Of a stretch of 64,000 bases of DNA, positions 10,255-62,892 are shown piece by piece. The notes below the pieces were generated by a model. That model was given only the letters and a program-made list of their open reading frames with translations, was not told the DNA's origin and did not search any database. Source of the stretch: Oscillospiraceae bacterium (lineage in GTDB: Bacteria; Bacillota; Clostridia; Oscillospirales; QAMX01); contig SVLQ01000008.1 of the NCBI GenBank assembly GCA_015067825.1, positions 777-64,776 of the forward strand. The letters run 5' to 3'. Positions within the stretch are counted from its first letter, which is position 1, and every line of letters starts with the position of its first letter. The position numbers and the translations under genes are program-made.

Positions 10255-10264
10255 GGCCGGTTCC

Positions 10265-11587: not shown

Positions 11588-11684
11588 ATTCGTTTCGTCT
11601 CCTTTTTTGATTGAAATGTTATTTGGTGAAGTTGATCCGTTTTTTCCGGCGGTGATCAGCGCACGAAAAGCCCGCCGCAGCGGT

Positions 11685-30786: not shown

Positions 30787-30801
30787 TTTAGGAGGATAAG
30801 A

Positions 30802-31065: not shown

Positions 31066-31080
31066 AGGAGGCAAATCACC

Positions 31081-31449: not shown

Positions 31450-31464
31450 GGGGGAGAAGCGATA

Positions 31465-31782: not shown

Positions 31783-31806
31783 GGGCAAGGAGGCAAATGA
31801 AAGCAT

Positions 31807-32349: not shown

Positions 32350-32367
32350 AGAGGGGAGACAATAGCT

Positions 32368-32553
32368 ATGGCTAAGAAATCTATGATTCTCAAACAGCAG
32401 AGAGAGCCGAAATTCTCGACTCGTGCTATGAACAGATGCAAGATCTGCGGCAGACCGCACGCTTATCTCCGTGACTACGGCATCTGTCGTATCTGCTTCC
32501 GCGAGCTTGCGTACAAGGGCCAGATCCCCGGTGTCCGCAAGGCGAGCTGGTAA
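32368..32553 (+). CDS. rpsN: 30S ribosomal protein S14 type Z (zinc-binding form)
   Basis: 61 aa with CKICGRPH…CRIC, a Cys4 short-form S14. Confidence 0.96.
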
Positions 32554-32573
32554 ATTGTAAGGAGGTAGCGACA

Positions 32574-32972
32574 ATGCATATTACAGATCCTATCGCCGAT
32601 ATGCTGACGAGAATTCGCAACGCGAGCTCTTATCACCACGAATCGGTCGATATTCCGGCTTCCAATGCCAAAAAGACCATTGCTGAGATCCTGCTCAGCG
32701 AAGGATATATCAAAAACCTCCAGTTCATCGACGACGGCTCGCAGGGCATCATCCGCGTTACGCTGAAATACGGTCAGAACAAGGAATCGGCCATCACCGG
32801 TCTCCGCCGTGTTTCCAAACCGGGTCTGCGCGTTTACGCCGGCGTTGAAGATATGCCGAAGGTTCTGAAGGGTCTTGGCATCGCCATCGTTTCCACTTCC
32901 AAGGGCATCATGACCGACAAGAAGGCTCGCAGCCTGCACGTCGGCGGCGAAGTCCTCGCGTTTGTCTGGTAA
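32574..32972 (+). CDS. rpsH: 30S ribosomal protein S8
   Basis: 132 aa, conserved S8 sequence. Confidence 0.97.
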
Positions 32973-46832: not shown

Positions 46833-47004
46833 AATTTACTCCTTTCTATAAATGATTGTGATTTATCTTATACGACGGGCCCTGTCGTTGTAATTATTTT
46901 ATCACAACGATAAATGTCAGTCAATAACCGCGTTTTTGCGTAATTTACCACTATCGGTTGTTTTTTACTCGTTTGAGTTGATATGTATGCAACAATCAAC
47001 AATA

Positions 47005-47035
47005 AAAACGAGCCAATTTTTAGTTGGCTCGTTTT
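47005..47035. terminator. Bidirectional hairpin terminator/insulator
   Basis: aaaacgagccaa-tttttag-ttggctcgtttt. Confidence 0.6.
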
Positions 47036-47054
47036 CGATAATTTATGGGGTATT

Positions 47055-47105
47055 TAAAAACTGTCCTTAAGAACACGTTCCAAAGGTGTGCGACTTTCTT
47101 TTTGT
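47055..47105. repeat. Right inverted repeat bracketing the XRE-TPR cassette
   Basis: TAAAAACTGTCCTTAAGAAC…GGTGTGCGACTTTCTTTTTGT, the reverse complement of 45323-45374. Confidence 0.75.
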
Positions 47106-47244
47106 ATGCTTCACGCTTCATCCAAACTCGCGGAAGGAGAAGGAAGCCTTCCGGCAAGCGGTTATTCTTGACCCTTTACGGAGCGTGTGATATAATAAGC
47201 ACAAAGCGATGGTGCGATGAAAAACAAGGCGTGGTGAAGACTAC

Positions 47245-48354
47245 ATGGAAAAATGCATTCAAAAATACCGTGATTTCTATGCATTGAAGCCGAATTCTCC
47301 GCTGATCATGCGCGAATTTGGTTGGTACTGCCGGGAACGGTGGGAACGGGAAGGCTATATCAAACCCGGCGAAGATTTGGATAAGCTCTTTGGCTTTGAC
47401 GAATCGGGCGTTTGCCTTCTGGTTTTTCTGAATGGCTGTGAGGCGGCGCTGGAGCCGCCGTTTGAAGAAACGGTGCTGGAAGACCTGGGAAAATATGAGA
47501 TCGTCCAGGATATTGTCGGCCGCCACGTTAAGTGTTTCAAAGGCCGCCGCAACGGCTTTATGCCCGAATACGTGGATCACCCGGTCAAGGATCAAAAAAG
47601 CTGGGAAGAAAAGATCAAGTGGCGCCTGAACCCGGCCAGCGAGGTCCGTTACCGTCGGTTTGACGAGCGAAAAGCGCAGATTCAAAGCGAAGTTGACCGC
47701 GGAAAGCTTTTGAGCGAACTGATGCCCGGCGGCTATATGTATTTGCGCTCTCTGTTCGGGCCGACCGAGCTGTTGTATGCGTTTTACGATATGCCCGAAT
47801 TGGTGCATGAGTGTATGCAGGCATGGTTTGCGCTGAACGACGCGGTCGTTTCGTACCATCAGCAGAGCTTTGATTTGGATGAGGTATTTTTTGACGAAGA
47901 TATCTGCTATAACCACGGCAGCCTGATCTCGCCCGATATGATCCGCGAATTTCTCTTGCCCTATTACCAGCAGATCGTCACTAACGTCAAGCGCCGCAAC
48001 CGGGATAAAACCCGCAAGGTGCATCTGCAGGTTGCGACAGACGGCGCAGTCCACTCGGTCATCGACCTGTATAAAGAAGTCGGCCTCACCTATATGTCGC
48101 CCTTTGAGGTCGCTGCAGGTTGCGACGTGGTGGAAATTGGCAAGCAGCACCCCGATCTTTTGCTGTCGGGCGGTATCGATAAACGCATTCTTGCCGCCGG
48201 AAAAGACGCGATCGACCGTGAACTGGAGCGCATTCTACCGGTGATGTATCGCCGCGGCGGCTATATCCCGACCTGCGACCACGGCGTTCCCGAAGAGGTT
48301 TCCTTTGAAAATTACCTGCATTACCGCAAACGCCTGCGAGAATACGCGGAGTAA
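47245..48354 (+). CDS. uroporphyrinogen decarboxylase (URO-D)-like family protein
   Basis: 369 aa. URO-D/MtaA-like TIM-barrel pattern, including the C-terminal GGYIPTCDHGVPEEVSFENY. No other heme genes are nearby, so this is probably not hemE. Confidence 0.65.
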   Translation: MEKCIQKYRDFYALKPNSPLIMREFGWYCRERWEREGYIKPGEDLDKLFGFDESGVCLLVFLNGCEAALEPPFEETVLEDLGKYEIVQDIVGRHVKCFKGRRNGFMPEYVDHPVKDQKSWEEKIKWRLNPASEVRYRRFDERKAQIQSEVDRGKLLSELMPGGYMYLRSLFGPTELLYAFYDMPELVHECMQAWFALNDAVVSYHQQSFDLDEVFFDEDICYNHGSLISPDMIREFLLPYYQQIVTNVKRRNRDKTRKVHLQVATDGAVHSVIDLYKEVGLTYMSPFEVAAGCDVVEIGKQHPDLLLSGGIDKRILAAGKDAIDRELERILPVMYRRGGYIPTCDHGVPEEVSFENYLHYRKRLREYAE

Positions 48355-48628: not shown

Positions 48629-49441
48629 ATGTTGCTAAGAGATCGTTGTTGGCTCTGGGGACATCCGGAGGGGTGTTTTAACGGGAAATGCGGCCTGAAA
48701 GACGACTCCAGAATGACGCCGATGGAGTGCTGTGATTATCTTGACATCGGCAATACCTTTATGGTGCCGATGGGCTTCAAAGTGGACCGGCGCAAATATA
48801 ACAAATCCTTCAAACGCTTACGCGGCGTTGGCTGGGATTGCTTCAATGCCGCGATAGAACCCGAAAAGATTGAACTGCTGATTGCGGACGCACGGGATTT
48901 CAATAATGTCAAGGTCGGTGTGTTTGACGATTTCAAAAACTGGGACGATAAGGATGAGCCTCCGCGCTACAAGCAGTTTCCCATCCAAAATCTGTACGAC
49001 GTGATCGGACGGATGCATGATAACGAAGTCAGACGCCTGGAATCGTGGATGGTGCTGTATACGCGCCTGTTTGGCGTCGATGAGCAGGACGACCGCGATT
49101 TCCAGCCCTACATGGATGCATTCGATGGCATCATTATGTGGACGTGGGAGGAACGCAACATTCCGCTGATCCCTGAAAAATTTGAGATCTTCAAAAAACT
49201 GACACCCAAGAACCGCCGTATGTTTGGATGCTATCTCTATGATTTCGATCAGTCCAAGCCGTCAACCCCCGAACTGGTCAAGTGGCAGCTGGATTTCTAC
49301 TACGAGCAGATGAAAAAAGGAGATGCCGAAGGCATCGTGTTCCACACGAACACGATGGCCGACCTCGATTTGGCGGCGTACGATGTGGCTTGTGCGTGGC
49401 TTGACGCCCACGGCGACGAAGAAGTTCCCGATCGAAACTGA
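48629..49441 (+). CDS. hypothetical protein
   Basis: 270-aa ORF with AAAGGAG upstream and coding-like composition. No domain recognised by eye. Confidence 0.6.
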   Translation: MLLRDRCWLWGHPEGCFNGKCGLKDDSRMTPMECCDYLDIGNTFMVPMGFKVDRRKYNKSFKRLRGVGWDCFNAAIEPEKIELLIADARDFNNVKVGVFDDFKNWDDKDEPPRYKQFPIQNLYDVIGRMHDNEVRRLESWMVLYTRLFGVDEQDDRDFQPYMDAFDGIIMWTWEERNIPLIPEKFEIFKKLTPKNRRMFGCYLYDFDQSKPSTPELVKWQLDFYYEQMKKGDAEGIVFHTNTMADLDLAAYDVACAWLDAHGDEEVPDRN

Positions 49442-49463
49442 AAAACGCAAAGGAGTCCAACCG

Positions 49464-50597
49464 ATGAATTTTCCCTCCACCAAAATCCAAACCGTTGCAA
49501 TTGAACCGGGACGGCGGATTCTTGCCACAAGCGATATCCACGGTTATTATTCTTACTTTGAAAAGATCCTAGCCAAGGCCGGTTTTGGCAGCAACGATAT
49601 TCTGCTGATCGTCGGCGATATGATCGAAAAAGGCCCCAACAGCTTGGCCACGCTGCGCCGTGTGATGGAGCTCTGCAAACAGGAAAACGTGATCGCGCTG
49701 ATCGGCAACGTCGATGCTACGCGCATGAAAATCATCAACGAGCTCTGCGAAGAGAACGTCGATGGTTTCTACCGCTATTGCCTGAGCCTGCGGGCGTGGA
49801 ACGGCTCGAGCTTTTTCGATGAACTCGCCGAAGAGTGCGGCTATAAAATCGAATCCGCGGCCGATATCCTGCGGGCAAAGCAGGATGTGATCGCCCATTT
49901 TGAGCCGGAATTCAACTTCCTTGCGGGCCTGCCGACGGTGGTGGAAACACAGAACTACGTGTTCGTCCACGGCGGCCTGCGCGAGCGGGCGGTGGCGGAC
50001 AATCGGGATAAAGGCCTCTTCGAGCTCACCAAATACGACGATTTCATGACCCAAACACCCCACGTTTTCGACAAATACGTCGTCGTCGGCCATTGGCCGG
50101 TCGCGCTCTATAATGGGGAGATCCAGCAGCAGAACCCGATTGTTAACCGCGAAAAGAAAATCATTTCCCTCGACGGCGGCTGTGGGGTCGAGAAAGTGTG
50201 CCAGCTCAATCTCCTCGTCATTCCCGATATCAACGCGCCGATCGACGCGGTCAGCTTTCTGAGCTACGACGATATCCCAACGGTGCGCGCGCTGGATGCG
50301 CAGGAGGCGAGCGCCGAATCCGTGCATATCTACTGGACAAATCGGGCGATCACGCTGCTCGAACGCGGCGACGAACGCTCCTATATCGAGCACGTTTCCA
50401 GTGGACGCAGGCTGTACGTGCCGAATTCGTATCTGAAAAGCGATACCGAGTGCTATCCCTATACGAGCTACGAGCTGCCAGTGCAGCCGGGCGACCGCCT
50501 GTCGCTGATCTCGGAATCGCCGCACGGCTGTGTTGTCAAGAAAGACGGCGTGATCGGCTGGTACCGCGGCGCGTATGAGCCGGACGATTCGCTGTAA
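49464..50597 (+). CDS. metallophosphoesterase (PPP/ApaH-like phosphatase family)
   Basis: ORF 49323-50597 trimmed to MNFPSTKIQ (ATG 49464, AAAGGAG upstream). Motifs SDIHGYY, GDMIEKG, GNVD, VHGG and GHWP are present. Confidence 0.75.
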   Translation: MNFPSTKIQTVAIEPGRRILATSDIHGYYSYFEKILAKAGFGSNDILLIVGDMIEKGPNSLATLRRVMELCKQENVIALIGNVDATRMKIINELCEENVDGFYRYCLSLRAWNGSSFFDELAEECGYKIESAADILRAKQDVIAHFEPEFNFLAGLPTVVETQNYVFVHGGLRERAVADNRDKGLFELTKYDDFMTQTPHVFDKYVVVGHWPVALYNGEIQQQNPIVNREKKIISLDGGCGVEKVCQLNLLVIPDINAPIDAVSFLSYDDIPTVRALDAQEASAESVHIYWTNRAITLLERGDERSYIEHVSSGRRLYVPNSYLKSDTECYPYTSYELPVQPGDRLSLISESPHGCVVKKDGVIGWYRGAYEPDDSL

Positions 50598-51679: not shown

Positions 51680-52141
51680 TTAGCCATGGCATCGTTGCGC
51701 CAAATATTTGCGCAAAACACCGGCGATCGGCGGTGAGAGGTTTTCCGGGATTTCGTCGGGGGCAAACCAACGCAAGGCTTCAACCTCGTCTGGCTGGGCA
51801 CGCAGAGAACCGTGCCAGCGCCGACAGATATAGACGATATCCACGTTGGAAACCTCGTCGCCGTTGGGATAGACATAGTGCGTTTCCTTGCCCGAAAACA
51901 CGCCGAACAGCGTCAGCTCATCGGCGATCAGCCCGGTCTCCTCCCAAAGCTCGCGCCGTGCGGCGGTCTCAACCTCTTCGTCGAGCTCGACCGCACCGCC
52001 GGCGTAACCCCAGCAGTGGTTGTCGCTCCGCTGCTGCAGCAGAATGCGCCCGGCCGCATCCTCCACGATCACACCGCCGCCAACCTGTAAAAGCGGGCGG
52101 TGGCCGACAAGCTTGCGCAGATCCATGATGTAGTTGGACAT
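51680..52141 (-). CDS. NUDIX hydrolase
   Basis: ORF 51680-52177 trimmed to MSNYIMDL (ATG at 52141, GGAGG upstream), 153 aa. Nudix box GGAVELDEEVETAARRELWEETG. Confidence 0.85.
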   Translation of the reverse strand: MSNYIMDLRKLVGHRPLLQVGGGVIVEDAAGRILLQQRSDNHCWGYAGGAVELDEEVETAARRELWEETGLIADELTLFGVFSGKETHYVYPNGDEVSNVDIVYICRRWHGSLRAQPDEVEALRWFAPDEIPENLSPPIAGVLRKYLAQRCHG

Positions 52142-52142
52142 G

Positions 52143-52793
52143 TTATTCCTCCGTCGGCAAAGCAACCAATTCGTCAAAAATGCGCGTCAGCTTTTCGCTG
52201 ACTCGCTCTTTTTTGTGGTGATGCCCCTCAAACCAGTGCGTGTAGGCGACATTCGCCTCGATCCACGCGCACAACCCGGCGAGTGTGGGCGCTTGGGGAT
52301 CGTCGCCGCGCTCAAATTTGTGCGTGAGCACGTAATCAATGCGGTTGCCGTGGCGTGCGAGATTTGCGCGGGCGTGGGCGATCTCGGCAGCACTGGGCTC
52401 TTCTTCGGGGTACCAAAGCCCCATTTCCTTCCATTTGGCACTGCTTTTGCACCCGCCTATCACGAAGAACCGCTTGTTTGCGATCTCGTAAATCTCGCCG
52501 CGCTGCAAGTAAACGATCTGCTCCGTCAGCCGGTGCACCGTTCCGCCGCACCATTGCTCGGTCGGAAAGCTGCGCAGCCACGGGTAGTTTTCGTGGTTGC
52601 CGTCGATGATCGCGATCGGAAAGGGTAACGCGAGAAATTCTTTGGTAAAGCGGCGGTTTTCCTCGGTGGGGCGGAAGGCGAGCTCGGTATCGCCAAGGAG
52701 GATTAGCAGATCACCCGGACGATATGTCCGGCGGTATGCCGTGAGCCCGGATGCATATTCGCCGCCGTGCGGATCGCTCAAGAGGTAAATCAT
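52143..52793 (-). CDS. metallophosphoesterase (small Ser/Thr-phosphatase-like)
   Basis: 216 aa with motifs LSDPHG, LGD and DGNHEN. Its stop codon lies 1 nt from the NUDIX start codon. Confidence 0.75.
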   Translation of the reverse strand: MIYLLSDPHGGEYASGLTAYRRTYRPGDLLILLGDTELAFRPTEENRRFTKEFLALPFPIAIIDGNHENYPWLRSFPTEQWCGGTVHRLTEQIVYLQRGEIYEIANKRFFVIGGCKSSAKWKEMGLWYPEEEPSAAEIAHARANLARHGNRIDYVLTHKFERGDDPQAPTLAGLCAWIEANVAYTHWFEGHHHKKERVSEKLTRIFDELVALPTEE

Positions 52794-52950: not shown

Positions 52951-53778
52951 ATGCTCCCTACCATTCAAATCGGCAATCTCGCGGTCTCGCGCCTGATCGT
53001 AGGCGGGAACCCCTTTAGTGGCAACAGCCACGTCAACGGCGACCTGAATGACCAGATGATCGACTATTTTACCACCGCCAAGCTCAAGGAAACGCTCTTT
53101 CACTGCGAAGAATGCGGCATCAACACAATGCAGCTCCGCGGCGACGCCTATATGTGGCGCATCGTCAGAGAATACCGCAACGAGGGTGGCAAAATGCTCT
53201 GGATCGCCCAGACCGCATCCGAATACGGCTCCTTCGAAGGCAACGTGAACACGCTGGCCAACAACGGCGCCGATGCGATCTACCACCACGGCACCAAAAC
53301 CGACTCGATGTTCAAAGACGGCGAAATCGACATCCTTCTCGACCGCCTGAAGATCATCCGCGCAACCGGTCTGCCGGTCGGCCTTGCCACCCATATGCCC
53401 GAGGTCATCTACTATGCCGAGGAGCACAACTGGGACGTCGACTTCTACATGGGCTGTGTCTATAACCTGAGCCGCGAAAACCGTGTCAGCAGCGCGATCA
53501 CCGGCATCGCCAACTCTGGCGAGGCGTTTTATGAAGAGGATATCCCGCTGATGTACGAGGCGATCCGCGCGGCCAAAAAACCGTGCCTCGCCTTCAAAAT
53601 CCTCGGTGCGACTCGCCGCTGCCAATCGCAGGAAACGGTGCAGGCGGCGTTCGACGAGGCCTTCCGCGAGATCAAGCCGACCGACGGCGTGATCGTCGGC
53701 GTTTACCCCAACGGCCGCGATGAGGTCGCCCTCGACGCGCGCTATACTCGCGAGGCAATCGAAAAGCTCCGGGCGTAA
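52951..53778 (+). CDS. hypothetical protein
   Basis: 275-aa ORF with AAGGAGG upstream and coding-like composition. No domain recognised by eye. Confidence 0.6.
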   Translation: MLPTIQIGNLAVSRLIVGGNPFSGNSHVNGDLNDQMIDYFTTAKLKETLFHCEECGINTMQLRGDAYMWRIVREYRNEGGKMLWIAQTASEYGSFEGNVNTLANNGADAIYHHGTKTDSMFKDGEIDILLDRLKIIRATGLPVGLATHMPEVIYYAEEHNWDVDFYMGCVYNLSRENRVSSAITGIANSGEAFYEEDIPLMYEAIRAAKKPCLAFKILGATRRCQSQETVQAAFDEAFREIKPTDGVIVGVYPNGRDEVALDARYTREAIEKLRA

Positions 53779-53993
53779 TATCTGTGCAAAGCCTCTGCTG
53801 CCGAACAACTTTGTTCGGCAACATGCAATTTGTCGGCCCGCTCAAAAAGGTTCTGCCCAAAACGGCATTTGAGGGGGCGATGGTTTTTGCTTGGTACCGC
53901 CAAAGAATGAAACTTTTTCTGCTGTTTCGGAGAATGTGTTCCACTTGCGCGCTGCTAACCAGCTAAGTTAAAAGGGATTCCCTTGCCGCCCAC

Positions 53994-54022
53994 TTGACGG
54001 AATCGGTGCGGTGTGGTATAAT
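53994..54022 (+). promoter_or_regulatory. SigA-type promoter (TTGACG-17-TATAAT)
   Basis: TTGACG at 53994-53999, 17-nt spacer, TATAAT at 54017-54022. Confidence 0.65.
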
Positions 54023-54066
54023 CAACCGTGTATCTGTTTGCCCTCGCTCAGCGATCTGAAATGTTC

Positions 54067-54099
54067 AGCCGCGGCAAAATTTGCTGCGGCTTTTTCTTT
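54067..54099 (+). terminator. Terminator-like hairpin inside the 5' leader of the Sel1-repeat gene
   Basis: agccgcggc-aaaattt-gctgcggct (9-bp stem with one G-U pair) followed by TTTTTCTTT. Located between the promoter and the start codon. Confidence 0.6.
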
Positions 54100-54136
54100 G
54101 AAAAATACCGAAAATCCCCAAAGGAGGTGAGTCTCG

Positions 54137-57100
54137 GTGAACGAAGAATGGACGATCCCGGAAGAATGGCAGGAGCCGGAACGCGGCGGAACAGCCTCGG
54201 AAGCGGCGAATAGCGATGCTGCGCCGAGCCTCGCCGCCGGAGAAGTGATTTTCCTCGACCCCGAACCGTTTTTGAAGATCTCGGAGTCGATTGCCAAGGA
54301 GCGCGAAGATCTCGCGCAGCTCGCCGAAGCCGCCGAAGGCGGTGATGTCAACGCGCAGTACGAAATGGCCGTGCGCTTCACAGAAGGCCGCGGTGCTAAG
54401 CGCGACATGGCCGAAGCCGCCCGTTGGCTCGAAATGGCCGCCGACAACGGCGATGCCCGCGCTGCCGAAGCGCTGGGGCGCTGCTACCAGTTTGGCGTCG
54501 GCGTTGAGGTTGATTTTGCCAAAGCCGCAGCGCTTTACCGCAAAGCCGCCGACGAAGCCTATCCGCCGGCGCAGTGCTGCCTTGCCCTTTGCCTGATGGG
54601 CGGCATTGGCGTCGAGAAGAATGAAGATGAGGCGCGCCGCCTGATGGAAGAAGCGGCCGCGCAGAACTTTCCGCAAGCGCAGTACCACCTTGCAATGTGG
54701 GCGATCTACGGCGTGGGCGAGGAAAAGAACGAAGAAAAAGGCCTCCGACTGCTCACGCTCGCAGCTGAAGCCGGCTATGCGCCCGCGCTGAGCGGGCTGG
54801 GGCTCTGCTACGAACACGGCACGGGCGTTCCGCTCGATTTCGACCGCGCCGTCAAGCTCTACAACGCTGCTGCCGAGCAGGATTATGCCCCGGCGAAGAC
54901 GAATTTTGCCGCCTGCCAGCTCCACGGCATCGGTGTGGCCAAAGATCCGGCCGCCGCCGTCGAATGGCTCCGCGAAGCCGCCGAACAAGGCGAAATGCGC
55001 GCGCAGCACATGCTCGGCGAATGCTGTGAGAACGGTGTGGGTACCGAGAAGGATCCGGCGCATGCGGCCGAGCTCTACCGTATTGCCGCCGAACGTGGCT
55101 ACCCGCCTGCGCAGTGCAGTCTGGCGGTCTGCTACTTGAACGGCAACGGCGTCGATCGAAGTGCCACCGAAGCGATTGAATGGCTCAACCGCGCGGTCGA
55201 AAGCGGCTTTCCGCGCGCCAAGAGCATTCTGGGACTTTGCTACGAAAACGGCACGGGCGTCGAGGAAGACGAGGCCCGCGCGTTTGATCTCTACCGCGAG
55301 GCGGCCGAGGCCGGCGACCCCGACGGACAGTGCTGTTTCGGCCTCGCGCATCTGAACGCCATCGGCGTCGAGGAAAACGCCGAAGAGGCTGTGCGTTGGC
55401 TCAAGCGCGCCGCCGTGGTCGGTTTGCCGCGCGCACAGGATGCGCTCGGTGTCTGCTACCGCCGCGGTTATGGTGTTGAACAGGATGAACAGCGCGCTGT
55501 GCGGCTGTTTATGGCCGCGGGCGAGCAAAACTATGCGCCTGCACTCTATAATCTTGCCCTCTGCAAGCTCAGTGGTCGCGGAACTGACCGCGACGATCAC
55601 GAAGCCGTTGCGCTCTTGGAACGCGCCATCGAAGAACAGCAGCTCCCGCAGGCCAAGGTCATGCTCGGCAAATGCCTCGAGCGCGGGCTGGGCTGCGCCA
55701 AAGATGCCGTGCGCGCGTTTGCGCTCTACCGGGCGGCCGCCGAAGATGACGACCGCGACGGTCAGTGCTGCTGCGGCCGCTGCCTGATCGACGGTGTTGG
55801 AACCGACGAAGACTATGAAACCGGAATTGCCTGGCTGGAAAAATCGGTCGAGCAGGAGAGCTTTGAAGCGATGACGCTCCTCGGCCGTTGTCTGGAAGAG
55901 GGCTTTGTCGTTGACCGCGACCGTGAGCGGGCCGAGCTCCTCTATTTGCAGGCCGCGGGTGCCGATTTTGCGCCCGCGCAGTACCGCCTCGCGCGGTTTC
56001 TGCTCGCCACGGGCAAAACTGAGGACAACCGCCGCGAAGCGCTGATCTGGATGCGCGCTGCGGCCGACCTCGGCTATGCCGAAGCCGAATTCCGGCTCGG
56101 CGAGTTTTATCTCAAGTGCCCGCCCTCCGATGCGGATGCGCCGACTGCCGCCGCATTGTTCCGGCGAGCGGCCGAAAGCGGCAGTGCCGAAGCGCAGGCT
56201 TCGCTCGGGTTCTGCCTGCTCTATGGCAAGGGCGGTGCGGAAACAAATGAAAAAGAAGCGGTTGCGTGGCTCAAACGCGCGGCCGAACAGCAAAACAGCC
56301 GCGGCAAGCGTATGCTTGCGCGCTGCTACCACCGCGGAATTGGTGTGCCGCTCAACCGCGGCAAGGCCTACCGGCTGTACCGCGATGCCGCGCAGGCGGG
56401 CGATGCCGAAGCGCAGCTGGCGCTGGCCGTGATCCAACTGGCCGAACCCGGTCCGCTGTTTGCCGAGGGGCTTTCGTGGCTCCGGCTGGCCGCCGAACGC
56501 AACCATCCGCCGGCACAAGCGATGCTCGGCGACTGCTACGCGTATGGCGTGGGCGGTGCGGTCGATTTTTCGAAAGCGCGCGTGTGGTATACGCGTGCCG
56601 CCACCTCCGGCGGTGCCGACGAAAAATACAAATTCGGCTGCTTCCTGCTCCGCGATCCTGAAAAAACGGCCAAGCAGAACGCGATCGAGTGGCTCCGCCG
56701 CGCCGAAAAGGCCGGCAGTAAGCTGGCGACCGTGCAGCTCGGCCTGTGCTACGAATCCGGGATTGGGCTTGAGCGCAGCGAGGCCGAGGCAGTGCGCTGC
56801 TATTTGCGCGCGGCCGAAGGCTGCCTGTTTGCAAAGTACCATCTGGGTCGCTGCTACCTGAGCGGGATCGGCGTGCGCAAGGATCTCACCAAAGCGATTG
56901 CGATCCTGCAATCCGCTGCCGACGCCGGTGAACCGATGGCGAGCCTGCTGCTCGCGCAGTGCATGCAGGTCGGCTGCGGCATCTCGCACGATCCCGAACG
57001 CGCCAAAAAGTTGGCGGAAATGGCGATGCGTGTGATGATGCGACAGTATCTCGGCCTGCGCCCCGAGCACCTGCTCGCGCGGGCGCACTGCTTCCGCGAG

Positions 57101-57280
57101 GGCTTGGGCGTCGAGATCGACCCTGCGCGGGAAAAACAGCTCGTCAAACGCGCCAAAGAGCGCGGACTGGACAAATCGATGGTCCCGACGGTGCGCGTTT
57201 CGCGCCGCGGCGAAGTAACCGCGCGCTTTACCGTTCGCAAAAAGCGCACACCTACAGAAAAAACCGAACCGAACACATAA
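54137..57280 (+). CDS. giant Sel1-like repeat (SLR/TPR-clan) protein
   Basis: 1047 aa with GTG start (AAAGGAGG upstream). I count about 26 consecutive 36-aa repeats of the form AQxxLGxCYxxGxGVxxDxxxAxxW/LYxxAAxxGxxx. No signal peptide, and a basic C-terminal tail. Confidence 0.85.
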   Translation: MNEEWTIPEEWQEPERGGTASEAANSDAAPSLAAGEVIFLDPEPFLKISESIAKEREDLAQLAEAAEGGDVNAQYEMAVRFTEGRGAKRDMAEAARWLEMAADNGDARAAEALGRCYQFGVGVEVDFAKAAALYRKAADEAYPPAQCCLALCLMGGIGVEKNEDEARRLMEEAAAQNFPQAQYHLAMWAIYGVGEEKNEEKGLRLLTLAAEAGYAPALSGLGLCYEHGTGVPLDFDRAVKLYNAAAEQDYAPAKTNFAACQLHGIGVAKDPAAAVEWLREAAEQGEMRAQHMLGECCENGVGTEKDPAHAAELYRIAAERGYPPAQCSLAVCYLNGNGVDRSATEAIEWLNRAVESGFPRAKSILGLCYENGTGVEEDEARAFDLYREAAEAGDPDGQCCFGLAHLNAIGVEENAEEAVRWLKRAAVVGLPRAQDALGVCYRRGYGVEQDEQRAVRLFMAAGEQNYAPALYNLALCKLSGRGTDRDDHEAVALLERAIEEQQLPQAKVMLGKCLERGLGCAKDAVRAFALYRAAAEDDDRDGQCCCGRCLIDGVGTDEDYETGIAWLEKSVEQESFEAMTLLGRCLEEGFVVDRDRERAELLYLQAAGADFAPAQYRLARFLLATGKTEDNRREALIWMRAAADLGYAEAEFRLGEFYLKCPPSDADAPTAAALFRRAAESGSAEAQASLGFCLLYGKGGAETNEKEAVAWLKRAAEQQNSRGKRMLARCYHRGIGVPLNRGKAYRLYRDAAQAGDAEAQLALAVIQLAEPGPLFAEGLSWLRLAAERNHPPAQAMLGDCYAYGVGGAVDFSKARVWYTRAATSGGADEKYKFGCFLLRDPEKTAKQNAIEWLRRAEKAGSKLATVQLGLCYESGIGLERSEAEAVRCYLRAAEGCLFAKYHLGRCYLSGIGVRKDLTKAIAILQSAADAGEPMASLLLAQCMQVGCGISHDPERAKKLAEMAMRVMMRQYLGLRPEHLLARAHCFREGLGVEIDPAREKQLVKRAKERGLDKSMVPTVRVSRRGEVTARFTVRKKRTPTEKTEPNT

Positions 57281-57282
57281 AA

Positions 57283-57319
57283 AACCTCTGCGATACAGAA
57301 CGTATCGCAGAGGTTTTTG
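57283..57319. terminator. Bidirectional intrinsic terminator
   Basis: aacctctgcgatac-agaac-gtatcgcagaggtt flanked by A and T runs, between convergent genes. Confidence 0.8.
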
Positions 57320-57328
57320 TCGTATGGA

Positions 57329-58792
57329 TTATTTTTTGGGCGGCAGCGCATTCTTGTGCTCGGCGTAGATGCGGTCGGTCTCGGCGAGCAGCCGCAGGAG
57401 CGAACAGATTGCGTAGATGCTGACGGCTGGTGCGACAAAGGTGTGGCCGATCAGGAATCCGACAGCAAAGGCGATCATCGTTTGGTAGAGACTTGTGCAC
57501 CAAAGGAGCGATGCGAGGCACCCCTTTAGTGCCTTCAGAGCGCGCCGCAGCGCACAAGCGAGGAGTGAGAAAAAAGGTGCAGAAAAGAGCAGCAAACCGA
57601 TAATGCCATGGCGGTAAAGTACGGAAATAAAGTCCATTTCCACCGCAATTGCCACATTATAGCGGTAGCTCGGCTGCATTGTGTAGCCGAGGCCGGTGAG
57701 CTTTTGCACCATACCGCTTTCGGCATACTGGAAAAGCACGGAACGGCTGTTGCTCAATCGACTGCTCAAAAGCCAGTTGGCAATGCGGTAAATCTTGGCA
57801 TTGGTGGTCGGTCGGGCGGCGATGGTTGTCTGCGGCGTGGTTGTGGGTTTGGTCGTGGCCGGAGCAGTGGTGGTTGCCGGCGGCGCGGTCGCGCCGGTCT
57901 GTACCTGTACGTAGTGGAACCAAGGCAGACGCTCGGTCAGGTGCTGGCGCACCGGCGAGGTGAGGTAGAGTACAACGAGAGCGGCGATCATCAAAATTGC
58001 GGCACTCATGCGGAAGAGATGCAGCTTGTCGCGCGTGATTTCCAACCGGAAAACGCTCCAAAGCAGGAAGCAGATCAAATAGACCGCGATCCCCAGCAGC
58101 GCAGCTTTTGTTGCCAGATACGTGCCGGCAAATAGCATCAGTATAACCGAAATTGCACCGAGTGCGATGCGCGAAACGCGCTTGGCCCACGGCGATTCCA
58201 AAAGGCCGGTGTAAGCTGTTTTGTTCGTGAAATAGTAGCACACAAGCGGCGAGAGAATGAGCGTGATCGAAGAGATCTCATTGGCGGCGTAGAACCAACC
58301 GCAGTAACCGTTGCCGTTGTAGGACTGGAACGAGGTATCGGTAACGAAAGAGATGAAGATTGTCAGCGTGTAGAAAACGCCAATGGCCACGAGCGAACGG
58401 TTGGAAACGAGATAGCCAAATTCACGGTAGAGTGCCCAAAACGCCACCAAAACGCAGGGAAAATAGAAAACCTTGATCGTTTCCTTGAGGTTTGTGAACA
58501 AAACACCCATGCCACCCTGAGCAAATAACTGTACGAGCTGCACGGCAACAAACGCGATTACCGCCACGAGATATGCAATCACCAGCTTGCGCTTGGGTCC
58601 GCGGTAGAAAAAGAACGCGTAACAGCCCATAAACGCCAAAAAGAGCGCGCGTAGAATTACGCCGAATGTCACATCCATGCCGGCGCGCACCAAAAAGGAA
58701 GTGGTGATGTCGACGATTGGCTGCACAAGCATATAAATAAGGACGATCTTTCGGATCACATCGATCGAAAAGAGCTGTTTTAATTTTGCCAT
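57329..58792 (-). CDS. O-antigen ligase/polymerase (Wzy_C)-like membrane protein
   Basis: 487 aa with at least 10 predicted TM helices. An internal Thr/Pro-rich segment reads TGATAPPATTTAPATTKPTTTPQTT. The topology resembles the O-antigen ligase family. Confidence 0.6.
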   Translation of the reverse strand: MAKLKQLFSIDVIRKIVLIYMLVQPIVDITTSFLVRAGMDVTFGVILRALFLAFMGCYAFFFYRGPKRKLVIAYLVAVIAFVAVQLVQLFAQGGMGVLFTNLKETIKVFYFPCVLVAFWALYREFGYLVSNRSLVAIGVFYTLTIFISFVTDTSFQSYNGNGYCGWFYAANEISSITLILSPLVCYYFTNKTAYTGLLESPWAKRVSRIALGAISVILMLFAGTYLATKAALLGIAVYLICFLLWSVFRLEITRDKLHLFRMSAAILMIAALVVLYLTSPVRQHLTERLPWFHYVQVQTGATAPPATTTAPATTKPTTTPQTTIAARPTTNAKIYRIANWLLSSRLSNSRSVLFQYAESGMVQKLTGLGYTMQPSYRYNVAIAVEMDFISVLYRHGIIGLLLFSAPFFSLLACALRRALKALKGCLASLLWCTSLYQTMIAFAVGFLIGHTFVAPAVSIYAICSLLRLLAETDRIYAEHKNALPPKK

Positions 58793-58895: not shown

Positions 58896-59957
58896 TCAAA
58901 GCAGCGCTTCCAAGCGCTCGGTGATCATCTTGTTGTACCAGTCGAGCGGGTCGGGCGTTTTTTCGGTTTTTTCAAACCGCACCATCGCTTCAGTCATGTC
59001 GTCGTGGCCGCAGATGCCGTCGTTGTAGGCTTCCAGATGCTTCGGGATGAGCACGGGCAGCCCCAGTGCCTTCGCCTCCCACAAAACCATGCCCTGTCCC
59101 TCGTAGCGCGAGGTCAGAACGAAGCCGTCCATCTTCGCCATGTACGGGAACGGGTTGGACTGGTAGCCGAGCATCGTTACGGCATCCTCGAGCCCGAGGG
59201 TCGTAATCTGACGCGTGAGCGACTGACGCAGTTCTCCGTCGCCGATGAAATAGAGGTGCAGCTCGGGTCGGCGCGCGTACGCCTTGGCAAAATCGTCGAG
59301 CAGCAGGTCGTAGCCCTTGGCGTAGCACATGCGCCCAACCGTGCAGAGATTTATCTTTGTCGGGTCGGGCACGAAATCGACTTCGGCGGCGGCTTTGGCG
59401 TAGATCTCGGAAGTGTCGATGTAGTTGGGCACCACCGTGATCGGCTTGTCTTTGAGCTTGGCCTCTTCGGGGAAAACCGCGGCGCATCCGCCGGAAACTG
59501 CGGCAAACTCGTCAAAACGGTGGAACTTATCCTTGAAAAAGTGCCAGAGCAGGCGGAATTTCTTTTCGTAGCCCTTGCTCTTGCGCACGTCGGTGTGTAC
59601 CCAGCAAATGCGCTTGTCAGCCGGAACCGACAACGCATCGACGGCGCATTCGTTTTGATAGCTGTTGAAGTCGATGGCCGTGTCATAACGGAAGCCGGGC
59701 GCGGGCGCGGAACCGCGCTTTAAGCGGAAAACGAGCGGGAAGTAGAGGAACCGGAACCAGTAGGGGTAGGGCTTGCGGAAGTGGACGGTGACATTTTCGG
59801 GGAAATCCACGTCGTAGAAGATGTTTTTATCGTACAAATAGAGGTCAATCTCGTATTTTTCGCGGTCGAGGTTTGCGATCAGGTTCAAAAGCGATTTCTG
59901 AATCCCGCCGACCCAAAGCTCTTTTTGAAAGATCGCCAGTTTTTTTCGCTGTGCCAT
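58896..59957 (-). CDS. glycosyltransferase family 4 (GT-B, group 1)
   Basis: 353 aa. The C-terminal region, with DGFVLTSRYEGQGMVLWEAKALGLP (EX7E-type motif), is typical of GT4. Confidence 0.8.
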   Translation of the reverse strand: MAQRKKLAIFQKELWVGGIQKSLLNLIANLDREKYEIDLYLYDKNIFYDVDFPENVTVHFRKPYPYWFRFLYFPLVFRLKRGSAPAPGFRYDTAIDFNSYQNECAVDALSVPADKRICWVHTDVRKSKGYEKKFRLLWHFFKDKFHRFDEFAAVSGGCAAVFPEEAKLKDKPITVVPNYIDTSEIYAKAAAEVDFVPDPTKINLCTVGRMCYAKGYDLLLDDFAKAYARRPELHLYFIGDGELRQSLTRQITTLGLEDAVTMLGYQSNPFPYMAKMDGFVLTSRYEGQGMVLWEAKALGLPVLIPKHLEAYNDGICGHDDMTEAMVRFEKTEKTPDPLDWYNKMITERLEALL

Positions 59958-60175
59958 ACCGTCCCTCCTGTCTCACTGCGTGTGCATACTGCATTTATTA
60001 TAGCACAGATGCGCCCGTTGTGTCAATTCTGCGAAAAAAGCCGCAAAAAAAGTCGTTGCGGGGAAAAACAATATCGCGTTTTTGAAAAAAGTGTGCTATA
60101 ATATAAAATAAGATTTTCTGCGGCCGTTTTCGCCCGGAAAATGGGAGTTTACCCGCACGATAAGGGAGATCATCC

Positions 60176-61759
60176 ATGACCGACCGAACCATTGAGATTC
60201 TCGATACCACCCTCCGCGACGGAGCGCAAAGCGAGCAGCTTTCGTTTTCCGTCAAGGATAAGATCAATATCATCCACGCGCTCGACCGCGCCGGCATTGC
60301 CGTGATCGAAGCCGGCAACCCCGGAGCCTCGCCCAAGGATATGGAGCTTTTTGCGGCGATGCGCGACGAAACGCTCAAACATGCACAGCTTGCGGCCTTT
60401 ACGCCGACGCGCCGCAAAACAAACGACGCCGAAGAAGATCCGATGCTTGCCGCCGTCGTCGCGTGCGGCGCGCCGATTGCCTGCGTCTTCGGCAAGTCCT
60501 CGCGCGACCATACCGAAAAGGTGCTCGCCGTTTCCGAATCGGAAAACCTCGCCATGATCGACGATTCGATCCGCTATCTCCGCGCCAAGGGACTGCGCGT
60601 CTACTTCGACGCCGAGCACTATTTCGACGGCTACCGCGCCGATCCCGCCTTCGCGCTGACCACCGTCCGCACGGCGTTTGCCGCGGGCGCGGAGCAGATC
60701 GTGCTCTGCGACACCAACGGCGGCACGCTGCCGGCCGAGGTCGCCCGTATTGTCGGCGAAACGATTGCGGCCACCGGTGCGCCGATCGGCATCCATTGCC
60801 ACAACGACGCCGGGCTTGCCGTCGCGTGCAGCATGAGCGCGGTCGAAGCCGGTGCCAATCACGTCCAGGGGACGTTCCTCGGCTTCGGCGAACGCTGCGG
60901 CAATACCTGCCTGAGCACGCTGATCCCGAATTTGCAGCTCAAGATGGGCTGCCGCGTCGTCTCCGACGAAGCGTTGCGGCGATTTGCGCGTGAGGCCAAT
61001 CTCATTGCCGACGCCGCCGACCGCCGCCTCGACCGCGAGCTGCCCTACGTCGGGCGCAGCGCGTTCGCCCACAAAGCCGGTATGCACGTCGACGCCCATC
61101 TGAAGTTCCGCGGCGCCTACGAACACGTCGACCCCGCTGCCGTCGGCAATACCCGCCGTCTGCCGGTCAGCGAATTCTCCGGCCACCAGACGCTGGTGGC
61201 AAAGTACGCGCATCTGTTCCCTGAGGTCAGCCGCAACGCGCCGATCCTCGCGCGCGTCCGCGAAACGCTGAAGCAAAAGGAAGCCGAAGGCTATCAGTAC
61301 GAATCTGCCGAGGGGAGCTTGGAGCTGCTGATCCGCCGCGAGGTCGGATCCACGCGCGATTTCTTCGAGCTGATCGACTGCAAACTGATCGACCAGCTGC
61401 CTGTCCGCATCGGTGCGAGTGCTTCGGCCGTGGTCAAGATCCGCGTCGGCGATGCGGTCGAGCTGGCCGTCGCCGAAGGCGAAGGCCCCGTCCACGCGAT
61501 CGATACCGCCCTGCGCACCGCGCTCGGCCGCGTCTATCCCACCCTCGCCAACGTCCACCTCACAGCCTACAAGGTGCGCGTCCTCACCCCGCGCAACGCC
61601 ACCGCCGCCAAGGTGCTCGTCCTGATCCACTCGACCGACGGCGACCGCGAATGGTCGACGGTCGGTGTCTCTGCCGATATCATCAAGGCGAGCTACTATG
61701 CCCTCCGCGATTCCATCGAGCTCAAGCTCATCAACGACTGCGAACGCGGCGCACTTTGA
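60176..61759 (+). CDS. cimA: citramalate synthase (2-isopropylmalate synthase family)
   Basis: 527 aa. Contains the ILDTTLRDGAQS and HCHND motifs, and a C-terminal LeuA-type regulatory domain. Size and N-terminus are typical of CimA rather than LeuA. Confidence 0.7.
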   Translation: MTDRTIEILDTTLRDGAQSEQLSFSVKDKINIIHALDRAGIAVIEAGNPGASPKDMELFAAMRDETLKHAQLAAFTPTRRKTNDAEEDPMLAAVVACGAPIACVFGKSSRDHTEKVLAVSESENLAMIDDSIRYLRAKGLRVYFDAEHYFDGYRADPAFALTTVRTAFAAGAEQIVLCDTNGGTLPAEVARIVGETIAATGAPIGIHCHNDAGLAVACSMSAVEAGANHVQGTFLGFGERCGNTCLSTLIPNLQLKMGCRVVSDEALRRFAREANLIADAADRRLDRELPYVGRSAFAHKAGMHVDAHLKFRGAYEHVDPAAVGNTRRLPVSEFSGHQTLVAKYAHLFPEVSRNAPILARVRETLKQKEAEGYQYESAEGSLELLIRREVGSTRDFFELIDCKLIDQLPVRIGASASAVVKIRVGDAVELAVAEGEGPVHAIDTALRTALGRVYPTLANVHLTAYKVRVLTPRNATAAKVLVLIHSTDGDREWSTVGVSADIIKASYYALRDSIELKLINDCERGAL

Positions 61760-61782
61760 CGCCGCAGAAAGGGAGGAATACC

Positions 61783-62892
61783 ATGCAATACCGCGACTTC
61801 GGAAAAATCGGCAAGGTCTCTGCTTTGGGCTTTGGCTGTATGCGCCTGCCCACCCAGCCGGACGGCCATCTCGACGAGGAAAAGTCGATCGCACTTTTGC
61901 GCCGCGGCGCCGAGCTCGGTATCAACTACTTCGACACCGCCTATTACTACTGCCAGGAAGAATCGCAGTACGTCGTCGGCAAAGCGCTCAAGCCCATCCG
62001 CAACGACGTTTTGCTCTCGACCAAGCTCCCGCTGGGCGACACCGCCGACAAAAGTTTCTTCCGCACCACGCTGGAAGAGCAGCTTCGCCGCCTCGACACC
62101 GATTATATCGACGTCTACCATTTCCACGCGCTCAACAAAAAGAAATTCGACGAGGTCGTCCTCGCTAATGACATGATGAAAGATGCGCAAAAGGCGATCG
62201 ACGAAGGCCTCATCCGCCACATTTCCTTCTCTTTCCACGATAAACCTGAATATATCTCCGAAATTGTCGAGCGCGGCGAGATCTTCTCGTCGGTTTTGTG
62301 CCAGTATAACCTCCTCGACCGCGCCAACGAAGAGCAGATCGCCAAGGTCCACGAAAAGGGTCTGGGCGTGGTGATCATGGGTCCGGTCGGCGGCGGCAGA
62401 CTGGGTGGCTCGTCGATCTTCCCGGAAAAGGTCGACGCCGAATTTGCCGCCACGCCCGAACTGGCGCTGCGCTTTGTGCTCGGCAACCCCGGCGTTTCCT
62501 GCGCGCTGTCGGGCATGGAAAACCTCGACCAGCTCGAACAAAACGTCAAGGTCGCCTCCGATCCCGTGCCGATGACGGCGGAAACGATGGCCAAGGTGCA
62601 GGAGGCGCTCAAGGACCTCGAGCGCTTCAACGAGCTCTACTGCACGGGCTGCGGCTACTGCCTGCCGTGCCCCAAGGGCGTCGAGATCCCGCGCATTTTC
62701 CGCGCGTATAATATGGAAAACGTCTACGGCCTCACCGAGTACGCGAAGAAAACCTACGCCCGTCTCTCGGAAAAATCGGAAGCCGAGACCGCCGCTGCGG
62801 CGTGCGTTTCCTGCCGCGCATGCGTGAAAAAATGCCCGCAGAACCTCGATATCCCCGCGCTTTTGAAAAAAGCCGACGAAACGCTGAAGTAA
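61783..62892 (+). CDS. aldo/keto reductase with C-terminal 4Fe-4S-type cysteine clusters
   Basis: ORF 61651-62892 trimmed to MQYRDFGKIG (ATG 61783, GGGAGG upstream). AKR N-terminus, plus CTGCGYCLPCP and CVSCRACVKKCP motifs. Confidence 0.8.
   Translation: MQYRDFGKIGKVSALGFGCMRLPTQPDGHLDEEKSIALLRRGAELGINYFDTAYYYCQEESQYVVGKALKPIRNDVLLSTKLPLGDTADKSFFRTTLEEQLRRLDTDYIDVYHFHALNKKKFDEVVLANDMMKDAQKAIDEGLIRHISFSFHDKPEYISEIVERGEIFSSVLCQYNLLDRANEEQIAKVHEKGLGVVIMGPVGGGRLGGSSIFPEKVDAEFAATPELALRFVLGNPGVSCALSGMENLDQLEQNVKVASDPVPMTAETMAKVQEALKDLERFNELYCTGCGYCLPCPKGVEIPRIFRAYNMENVYGLTEYAKKTYARLSEKSEAETAAAACVSCRACVKKCPQNLDIPALLKKADETLK

Follow-up and report, generated by a model that had tools for sequence, protein, structure and literature searches.

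Closest described systems

Sel1-like repeat (SLR) proteins in general are protein-protein interaction modules, and most of the bacterial examples that have been characterised experimentally are secreted or periplasmic (PMC10868440, PMC10017501). EsiB (c5321, PDB code 4bwr) and the Legionella proteins LceB (8sxq) and LpnE (6deh) all act in this way (PMC10868440). They comprise 8-11 repeats, are secreted or translocated, and come from Gram-negative pathogens. A long array occurs in EnhC of Legionella pneumophila, a protein of about 1200 amino acids with about 21 SLRs. EnhC is periplasmic (PMC10017501). The ERAD adaptor SEL1L/Hrd3 (8kes, 9og0, 6vk3) is eukaryotic, membrane-anchored and luminal; its SLRs, about 11 in number, form interrupted clusters. 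In the secreted Helicobacter proteins HcpB and HcpC (1ouv) each repeat carries a disulfide-bonded pair of cysteines.

The protein described here is encoded by an uncultured Oscillospiraceae bacterium of gut type, in a 64-kb stretch of DNA that was analysed as a whole (the window). We lean towards reading it as a lineage-specific, cytoplasmic protein-interaction scaffold that consists of a 26-repeat SLR solenoid. With EsiB, LceB and LpnE it shares the SLR fold, 36-residue units, a seven-residue loop within the repeat and a capping helix (PMC10868440), but it has 26 repeats, no export signal and a host in the Clostridia. It is a long bacterial array like EnhC and an SLR solenoid like the adaptor SEL1L/Hrd3; it has no signal peptide. 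Cysteine-containing repeats are common to this protein and the Hcp family, but here the cysteine is conserved at column 14 alone and a signal peptide is again absent.

The nearest relatives of solved structure are the Oxalobacter formigenes Sel1 proteins (6ok3, 6onw, 6ur7, 6ork), pure SLR solenoids as is the query. They give the best match in sequence (E=4e-69) and in fold (Foldseek E=2e-24, target-normalised TM 0.68, 30% identity). The longest solved chain is of 509-523 amino acids, about half of the query array, and the query is covered in part by these alignments. The best-scoring Foldseek matches, 6ok3, EsiB, SEL1L, LceB, LpnE and HcpC, all belong to the SLR proteins.

The gene and its signals

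The coding sequence and the signals around it are as follows.

53994..54022, + strand: sigma-70-type promoter-like site, TTGACG and TATAAT with a 17-nt spacer, and TG before the -10 hexamer
54067..54100, + strand: terminator-like leader hairpin, 11-bp stem AGCCGCGGCAA/TTGCTGCGGCT and then a T-run, TTTTTCTTTG
54123..54127, + strand: ribosome-binding site GGAGG, 9 nt 5' of the GTG start, read from the sequence
54137..57280, + strand: coding sequence of the 1047-residue SLR protein, stop codon included (ORF, Pfam, AF2 model)
57280..57318, both strands: bidirectional intrinsic terminator hairpin, 18-bp stem between A- and T-runs

The promoter-like site agrees with the consensus at 11 of 12 positions. 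No second sigma-70-type site of such quality occurs in 53600..57600, where shuffled sequences average 0.6. The 3' hairpin (dG -27.9 kcal/mol, z -8.3) is common to the SLR gene and the convergent gene for an O-antigen-ligase-like protein. GC3 is 0.73, compared to 0.72 in neighbouring genes. With promoter, ribosome-binding site and terminator in place and GC3 equal to that of its neighbours, the ORF is a genuine gene. An assembly artefact is excluded: the DNA repeats, spaced at multiples of 108 nt, are just 60-75% identical to one another, and TRF detects no tandem array at the DNA level, whether of period 108 or 216.

The leader terminator noted earlier is present in the sequence, between the promoter and the ribosome-binding site (dG -18.7 kcal/mol, z -4.0). 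This hairpin has no second copy in the window, an Rfam search of the leader matched no family, and a candidate antiterminator pairing is no better than in shuffled sequences (z -0.4). Such a hairpin could hold expression low and is a putative attenuator.

Repeat architecture and predicted fold

The protein divides into four parts.

54137..54259, + strand: acidic N-terminus, residues 1-41, predicted to be disordered (pLDDT <50, charge, hydropathy, no Pfam match)
54260..54337, + strand: N-terminal capping helix, residues 42-67 (AF2 helix H42-67)
54335..57154, + strand: array of Sel1-like repeats, 26 units without gaps (mean 36.2 residues), residues 67-1006 (Pfam, HMM, AF2)
57155..57277, + strand: basic C-terminal tail, residues 1007-1047, predicted to be disordered (charge, Pfam, AF2)

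The Sel1 family (PF08238) is matched over 22 stretches; the score of 489 bits (E=6e-152) exceeds the cut-off of 30.7. Beyond Sel1, Pfam recognises just a partial TPR_27, and neither terminus matches a further domain, in keeping with the original prediction of a protein composed of repeats. That prediction had counted about 26 units. An HMM iterated on the protein's own sequence delineates 26, 23 of them strong and three (R20, R22 and R26) degenerate. The structure prediction that had been proposed as a check gives the same number: the AF2 model (pLDDT 85.1) comprises the cap helix and 52 helices, which form 26 helix pairs over residues 71-1008. The protein is thus predicted to be one continuous alpha-solenoid of helix-turn-helix Sel1-like repeats, the stacking of which is seen in the AF2 model.

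The Sel1 consensus core, A..LG..Y..G.G...D...A..WY..AA, is largely retained with Ala, Leu, Gly and Asp positions conserved. The deviation concerns the WY dipeptide, which occurs in a single unit; elsewhere WL and LY alternate. Canonical TPRs are of 34 residues, whereas the strongest autocorrelation signal here is at lag 36, and there is no TPR_1/2-type match beside the partial TPR_27.

The N-terminal 66 residues have a net charge of -12. The tail carries +7, which bears out the basic C-terminus noted before, and includes a beta-hairpin modelled with low confidence by AF2. On the model, the N-terminal helix would cap the solenoid, and the acidic head and basic tail would flank it as disordered segments. 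Hydropathy agrees with the earlier view that a signal peptide is lacking, with neither a hydrophobic N-terminus nor a transmembrane segment (max KD19 1.35); the acidic N-terminus has no n-region or h-region, and no sorting motif was found. The product would be retained in the cytoplasm.

Two alternating classes of repeat

The sole unusual feature of the protein is the strict alternation of two repeat flavours, which we call classes A and B.

54659..56815, + strand: block R04-R23, residues 175-893, in which classes B and A alternate in register (similarity matrix, class HMMs)

Class A, with the pattern LG.CYE...(R/K)A..LY, retains the canonical Tyr15 and Tyr32, and Leu replaces Trp31. Class B, AQ..LA.C.L...EA..WL, retains Trp31 and has Leu at positions 15 and 32, Ala for Gly12 and Glu for Lys/Arg27. 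Column 14 is a conserved Cys, and some class-B repeats have an extra Cys at columns 9-10. There are 34 cysteines in all (3.2%).

The two-repeat periodicity with WL/LY alternation that had been proposed is well founded. Similarity between repeats is 1.39 BLOSUM per column at even distances and 1.13 at odd distances (permutation p=0.0014, z=4.4), and the first principal component (PC1) of the similarity matrix changes sign at every unit between R04 and R23. Repeats of class A have a mean similarity of 1.67 to one another and those of class B 1.46, compared to 0.97 between the classes. Average-linkage clustering into two groups did not separate the classes; PC1 and the class HMMs did. The alternation runs in register across about 20 repeats, in about seven helix columns. 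The query has two WL/LY alternating runs of seven, the other long SLR proteins compared have runs of at most four, and comparable alternation is absent from 248 such proteins, most of which carry the canonical WY. This dipeptide occurs in 56% of 4040 homolog repeats.

The column positions at which the classes differ suggest that the canonical aromatic core is split across two neighbouring repeats, and that charge may alternate at successive helix-B positions. The A/B pattern would then be upheld by selection on the packing between repeats. The array is a natural and highly regular (AB)n hetero-repeat solenoid with its core aromatics partitioned between neighbouring units, and it would be of interest in the folding and design of repeat proteins if the two interfaces turn out to be geometrically different. 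A more adventurous reading is that of a heterotypic SLR architecture with a superhelical geometry of its own, for example a straighter or stiffer rod, that would serve as a structural or ruler element in the cytoplasm of this Oscillospiraceae lineage and be controlled by a new cis-acting attenuator, formed by promoter, hairpin and ribosome-binding site in the leader. We regard this combination as decidedly improbable.

Origin of the array

The original prediction had derived the periodicity from expansion of a 72-residue di-repeat. The two classes are indeed distinct. Similarity stays flat as the distance between units grows. Joint duplication of neighbouring A and B units was assessed with a Mantel test, which is not significant in either phase (r=0.32, p=0.11). 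The class signal is missing in linker and loop columns (z=0.23), and it is marginal once the seven defining columns are dropped (p=0.05). In the raw autocorrelation lag 36 exceeds lag 72, at first sight evidence against a di-repeat, but this is superseded by the unit-level analysis. With flat similarity, a non-significant Mantel test and a class signal confined to helix columns, descent and selection are inseparable. Di-repeat expansion is no more than plausible. Duplication of a B-A pair is the probable starting point of the array, the history of which can no longer be recovered.

Comparison with other long SLR proteins

The length of the protein and its non-secreted state had been considered unusual. 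Both views are contradicted by the database. A search with the di-repeat profile yields 294,382 cluster representatives; for 43,217 the match has E<=1e-30. The longest arrays matched reach 6337, 3669, 3386 and 3197 residues. Among the 120 best homologs, 94 are at least 1000 residues long, a hydrophobic segment at the N-terminus is missing from 85, and the number of strong repeats goes up to 26. Few kinds of repeat protein are commoner than SLR solenoids, and a protein such as this is ordinary in metagenomic sequence space with respect to length and location. The contrary impression reflects a bias in the literature: the bacterial SLR proteins that have been characterised are short and secreted, whereas most long arrays in the databases carry no export signal.

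The metagenomic giants (P0121, 6337 residues; P0137, 3669 residues; P0005-P0008, about 1500 residues) are long SLR arrays like the query. Sel1 is the only Pfam family in P0005-P0008, and these proteins, P0026, P0046 and P0010 lack N-terminal hydrophobic segments. They differ in being mostly of the canonical WY type, with 27-41% identity to the query. P0175 is of equal length (1047 residues) yet is unrelated in detail.

Non-classical export, followed by extracellular interaction with a host or surface as for LpnE, EnhC, EsiB and the Hcp proteins, would fit the secreted or periplasmic location of most characterised relatives (PMC10868440, PMC10017501). It is highly unlikely given the features of the N-terminus described above and the same lack of a hydrophobic segment in the long homologs; the number of cysteines also speaks against it. 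The secreted virulence factors of the LpnE, EnhC and EsiB type are further set apart by the lack of a Sec-type signal and by the Oscillospiraceae host, and the Hcp family by a second Cys that is found in few class-B units.

Many long SLR arrays in the databases are joined to effectors of conflict systems. Among the best homologs, many carry them fused to a caspase-like peptidase C14, TIR, NACHT/STAND NTPase, protein kinase, dynamin-like GTPase or trypsin domain; one of these is a TIR-SLR protein of a Ruminococcaceae bacterium. The query might by this token be a stand-alone sensor or decoy of an anti-phage or NLR-like system, with an array that would detect a protein of the invader and pass the signal to an effector encoded elsewhere. 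That the gene is lineage-specific and located at a synteny breakpoint (see below) is compatible with such a role. However, Pfam finds no effector domain in the protein, termini included, or in the flanking genes, PADLOC yields no defence-family hit (its one match is marginal at 18.7 bits, and none of its stretches passes), and the neighbours are housekeeping and envelope genes with no defence island. We consider a sensor of this kind unlikely.

Our preferred reading of a scaffold draws on the likeness to other SLR and TPR solenoids. Most likely the solenoid would act as a non-enzymatic scaffold or adaptor, with one or more partner proteins bound along the superhelical groove. The sole solved alpha-solenoids of similar length that Foldseek aligns to the query across about 1000 columns are the eukaryotic Ski3/TTC37, Ctr9 and subunits of IFT-A. 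These contain 34-residue TPRs and share 11-16% identity with low TM-scores (0.25-0.37), an analogy and not family membership. Such long TPR scaffolds give an idea of how partners might be wrapped by so large a solenoid.

Genomic setting

The SLR gene is chromosomal, as the window also contains the spc/alpha ribosomal operon and rpoA. It is flanked by a 275-residue ORF with no Pfam match and by the first of two envelope-related genes.

57329..58792, - strand: O-antigen-ligase-like (O-antigen_lig) gene, the convergent neighbour of the SLR gene
58896..59957, - strand: GT4 glycosyltransferase gene, beyond the ligase-like gene

This proximity raises the possibility of a scaffold for envelope polysaccharide that acts with the ligase-like protein and GT4, analogous to AlgK, ExoR and the TPR domains of PgaA/BcsC. 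TPR/SLR scaffolds are indeed known from exopolysaccharide systems (PMC9384988, PMC10868440), and the query partly resembles the models for AlgK and ExoR. The NCBIfam equivalog scores fall far under the curated cut-offs, however (AlgK 117 against 700, ExoR 90 against 450, MotX 155 against 330, MerG 184 against 350), and indicate generic repeat similarity. In addition, AlgK and ExoR are periplasmic and the query has no signal peptide, and the SLR gene is convergent to the ligase gene with its own promoter and terminator. In the nearest genome (MAG L002), where a neighbouring gene has a 70% identical counterpart by which the host is judged an Oscillospiraceae relative, the genes for the ligase, GT4 and LeuA are syntenic and there is no SLR gene at the site. 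The SLR gene thus sits at a synteny breakpoint relative to L002, and a role in polysaccharide assembly is distinctly unlikely. The neighbouring genes offer no hint of function.

No ortholog was found in the collections of genome contigs and metagenome contigs searched. A word-indexed protein search returned generic SLR matches only, at identities of 42% or less, and an exact look-up in the protein cluster collection did not find the query sequence. Its sole other occurrence is in an 8.9-kb ENA contig, 100% identical. The gene, as judged from these comparisons, is lineage-specific. The lack of an ortholog and the leader hairpin could together describe a fast-evolving orphan gene of no specific function, weakly expressed or unexpressed and silenced by that terminator. 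There is very little chance that this is so: the 3.1-kb ORF is intact with its strong repeats, core and register are kept over 940 residues despite the old divergence of the repeats in DNA, the fold is predicted with confidence, and promoter and ribosome-binding site are near consensus.

The antisense reading frame

A long ORF covers most of the gene on the opposite strand.

54065..57088, - strand: 1007-residue antisense ORF, codon-aligned with the sense frame (ORF list, codon counts)

It has no Pfam match and is a shadow ORF, not a gene. Only sense TTA, CTA and TCA codons would interrupt it, and the 1047 sense codons include none, whereas about 4.6 would be expected (P(0) about 0.01). The earlier attribution of this frame to codon usage is upheld by other genes in the vicinity: the LeuA-like neighbour has none of the three codons in 527, and the ribosomal-protein operon is likewise spanned by shadow ORFs of 683 and 645 residues.

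The Sel1-like repeat gene and its expression signals

The Sel1-like repeat (SLR) gene is intact and is furnished with expression signals. The ORF, with a GTG start, occupies positions 54137..57280 on the + strand and encodes 1047 amino acids, exactly as claimed in the original prediction. The N-terminus cannot be extended because there is an upstream stop in frame. The associated elements are:

53994..54022, 5′ of the gene, sigma-70 site close to consensus, TTGACG-17-TG.TATAAT (11/12 matches; the -10 is extended by TG)
54067..54091, terminator-like leader hairpin, 11-bp and GC-rich (dG -18.7, z -4.0), followed by TTTTTCTTTG
9 nt 5′ of the GTG start, ribosome-binding site GGAGG
57280..57318, bidirectional terminator hairpin, 18-bp and perfect, with A5 and T5 flanks (dG -27.9, z -8.3)

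The last of these lies 3′ of the SLR stop codon and is common to the SLR gene and a convergent O-antigen-ligase-like gene. Over 53994..54100 the leader reads as promoter, approximately 45 nt, then a strong hairpin with U-run; the ribosome-binding site comes only after these. The hairpin may work as an attenuator, may mark the end of a short RNA some 70 nt long, or may stabilise the 5′ end. The hairpin occurs once in the window, the leader matched no Rfam family and the sole candidate antiterminator pairing did not rise above shuffled sequence.

Repeat array and predicted fold

Comparison with Pfam assigns the protein to Sel1 (PF08238, E=6e-152), with 22 stretches that are each significant. A hidden Markov model (HMM) seeded from the protein's own sequence and iterated on it delineates 26 contiguous units, R01 to R26, from residues 67 to 1006 with a mean length of 36.2 residues. 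By this model 23 units are strong, the degenerate ones being R20, which is shortened, R22 and R26. The AlphaFold2 model, derived from a 25-sequence alignment (mean pLDDT 85.1, pTM 0.60), consists of a capping helix (residues 42-67) and then exactly 52 helices, or 26 pairs, over residues 71-1008, with residues 1-41 and 1010-1047 disordered. The product is predicted to be an α-solenoid of 26 units, and the original estimate of about 26 is borne out by both approaches.

No transmembrane segment is present, the maximum 19-residue hydropathy being 1.35, and we found neither an export signal nor a domain for catalysis or nucleic-acid binding. The terminal segments (N-terminal 68 and C-terminal 46 residues) have no Pfam match. 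The first 66 residues carry a net charge of -12, the tail +7 and the whole protein -31. The proposed lack of a signal peptide and of enzymatic or DNA-binding domains, and the basic tail, all agree with these results.

Alternation of two repeat classes

Residue autocorrelation is highest at lag 36 and falls off through lags 72, 108 and 144. Since insertions and deletions blur such a plain lag measure, the repeats were aligned to one another instead. Units separated by an even number of steps are more alike than those at odd distances, scoring 1.39 versus 1.13 BLOSUM62 per column (35.6% versus 32.3% identity; permutation p=0.0014, z=4.4), in accord with the two-repeat WL/LY periodicity first proposed. 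The first principal component of the unit similarity matrix changes sign at each step from R04 to R23, and there is a single phase slip where R03 and R04 are both B-like. The two classes differ at approximately seven helix positions. Class A conforms to LG.CYE.G.G...D..(R/K)A..LY..AA and class B to AQ..LA.C.L.G.G...N..EA..WL..AA. Similarity averages 1.67 among class A units, 1.46 among class B units and 0.97 between the classes. When the classes are set by columns 31-32 of the aligned repeat only, the other 34 columns still discriminate (z=4.8, p=0.0004).

Columns 31-32 are WY or WF in the canonical SLR and in 56% of 4040 repeats taken from a set of 248 other long SLR proteins. In the query WY occurs only once, and WL/LY alternation extends over two unbroken runs of seven; no run in the 248 comparators is longer than four and 162 have none. 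Two-repeat periodicity with z>3 occurs in 5/120 members of a first homolog set and 4/121 of a second; periodicity of some form is present elsewhere among SLR proteins and is uncommon. Only one feature sets the query apart: its canonical WY core motif is split in a regular (B-A)n pattern. Judged from column positions, the aromatic core residues would be shared out between adjacent repeats, and the alternation of Lys/Arg with Glu at column 27 along the array may be read structurally on the same basis.

Relatives

Searches for an ortholog in 185,579 species genomes and in JGI metagenome contigs returned none. The best matches in the protein database have 35-42% identity over partial lengths, a degree of resemblance that any two SLR proteins share. 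The exact protein is absent from a collection of 15 billion proteins and was found on one ENA contig, which is 100% identical to the window across 8867 bp. In clusters built at 50% identity, 294,382 representatives matched a di-repeat profile of 72 positions constructed from the window's own B-A units; for 43,217 the E-value was 1e-30 or lower. The repeat family to which the query belongs, as a new orphan, is very large and well known.

Are its length and cytoplasmic character exceptional? The view that Sel1 proteins are usually much shorter and often secreted did not survive comparison. Among the best 120 word-indexed matches, 94 are at least 1000 residues long and 85 have no N-terminal hydrophobic segment; seven have at least 23 strong repeats, with a maximum of 26, and domains of caspase-like, TIR, NACHT, kinase, dynamin-like or trypsin type are present in many. 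Neither the length nor the non-secreted state of the query is unusual. The contrary impression, of short and secreted bacterial SLR proteins, derives from the characterised ones, LpnE, EnhC, LceB, EsiB and Hcp (PMC10868440, PMC10017501). Among solved SLR chains that matched the query, the longest has 509-523 residues. Giant proteins occur near the top of the profile list (P0121, 6337; P0137, 3669; P0133, 3386; and P0122, 3197 residues), and in P0121 there are 91 separate stretches that match the profile. These four are uncharacterised and come from metagenomes.

Origin of the array

The observation of a periodic repeat array was confirmed, and the original interpretation as a whole is partly supported; one element of it, expansion of a 72-residue di-repeat, is a plausible origin of the array. 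Similarity between repeats is flat with distance (1.43 at 2, 1.40 at 12), and a Mantel test asking if similarities among B units mirror those of their A neighbours gave no significant result, with r=0.32 and p=0.11 in one phase and r=-0.12 in the opposite one. Once the seven columns that discriminate best are dropped, the class signal becomes marginal (p=0.05); linker and loop columns show none (z=0.23). DNA identity between units is only 60-75%, in short blocks at spacings that are multiples of 108 nt, and Tandem Repeats Finder detects no tandem array in the gene at period 108 or 216; the array is therefore old. A single ancestral B-A pair would be the more parsimonious history; what is observed is a pattern maintained at core and surface helix positions.

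Three long SLR proteins of the first homolog set, P0045, P0085 and P0104, in which the array is joined to a dynamin-like GTPase, AAA+ or kinase domain, display two-repeat periodicity far above that of the query (z 5.4-6.8). Their much higher inter-repeat similarity together with this strong periodicity points to recent di-repeat duplication or amplification. The repeats of P0133 are near-identical (mean similarity 3.98), which suggests a very recent expansion.

Genomic setting and likely role

The window is chromosomal and contains the spc/alpha ribosomal operon, rpoA, a Dus gene and an SLH-domain protein. To the left of the SLR gene are a 275-residue ORF, a metallophosphoesterase and a NUDIX gene; to the right are the convergent O-antigen-ligase-like gene, a GT4 glycosyltransferase and a LeuA/CimA-like synthase. 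Two ORFs have no Pfam or PADLOC match:

48629..49441, + strand, 270-residue ORF
52951..53778, + strand, 275-residue ORF directly 5′ of the SLR gene

Within 12 kb there are three genes for calcineurin-like metallophosphoesterases (41328..42554, +; 49323..50597, +; 52143..52793, -), and the NUDIX hydrolase gene (51680..52177, -) overlaps one by 35 nt. The GC content dips to 43.5% at 46001..48000, compared with 53-64% elsewhere in the window, and this segment may be horizontally acquired. It adjoins an ORF (45708..46832, -) of 374 residues with an N-terminal XRE-type helix-turn-helix and a remainder of otherwise unknown type.

By analogy with its family, the protein would serve in the cytoplasm as a scaffold or adaptor, with protein partners bound along its superhelix. 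The large TPR scaffolds Ski3 and Ctr9 bind partners in this manner and Foldseek aligns both over the full length of the query. The fusion of relatives to effector domains led us to consider a stand-alone sensor of a conflict system, but the query has no effector, no significant PADLOC match and no defence neighbourhood. A partner of the adjacent envelope-polysaccharide genes was also considered; the SLR gene is, however, convergent to them and scores against AlgK and ExoR are sub-threshold. Moreover, the nearest species-representative genome judged by the synthase (70% identity), an uncultured Oscillospiraceae MAG, keeps the ligase (58%), GT4 (58%) and synthase in synteny without the SLR gene, a MetA-like gene occupying its position and the left side differing. 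That genome has two tandem LeuA/CimA-type synthase paralogs (8428..9933, 9980..11596) compared to one in the window. A putative non-classically exported factor and a putative silent orphan were likewise considered.

Antisense reading frames

Long open frames lie opposite several genes:

54065..57088, - strand, 1007 residues, codon-aligned with the SLR gene
60170..61894, - strand, 574 residues, opposite the LeuA/CimA-like synthase (60176..61759, +)
30523..32574, - strand, 683 residues, spanning the small + strand genes L14 to L6
37921..39858, - strand, 645 residues, spanning the small + strand genes S13 to S4

Given the codon alignment, only a sense TTA, CTA or TCA would break the frame opposite the SLR gene. 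None occurs in its 1047 codons, where the codon usage of eight neighbouring genes would predict about 4.6 (P(0) ~0.01), and the antisense product has no Pfam match. Attribution of this frame to codon usage is upheld, with similar shadow ORFs elsewhere in the window. The synthase gene likewise has no TTA, CTA or TCA in 527 codons. The 683- and 645-residue frames, which have no Pfam match, cross the spc/alpha ribosomal-protein operon; giant shadow ORFs are therefore genome-wide here, even across gene boundaries.
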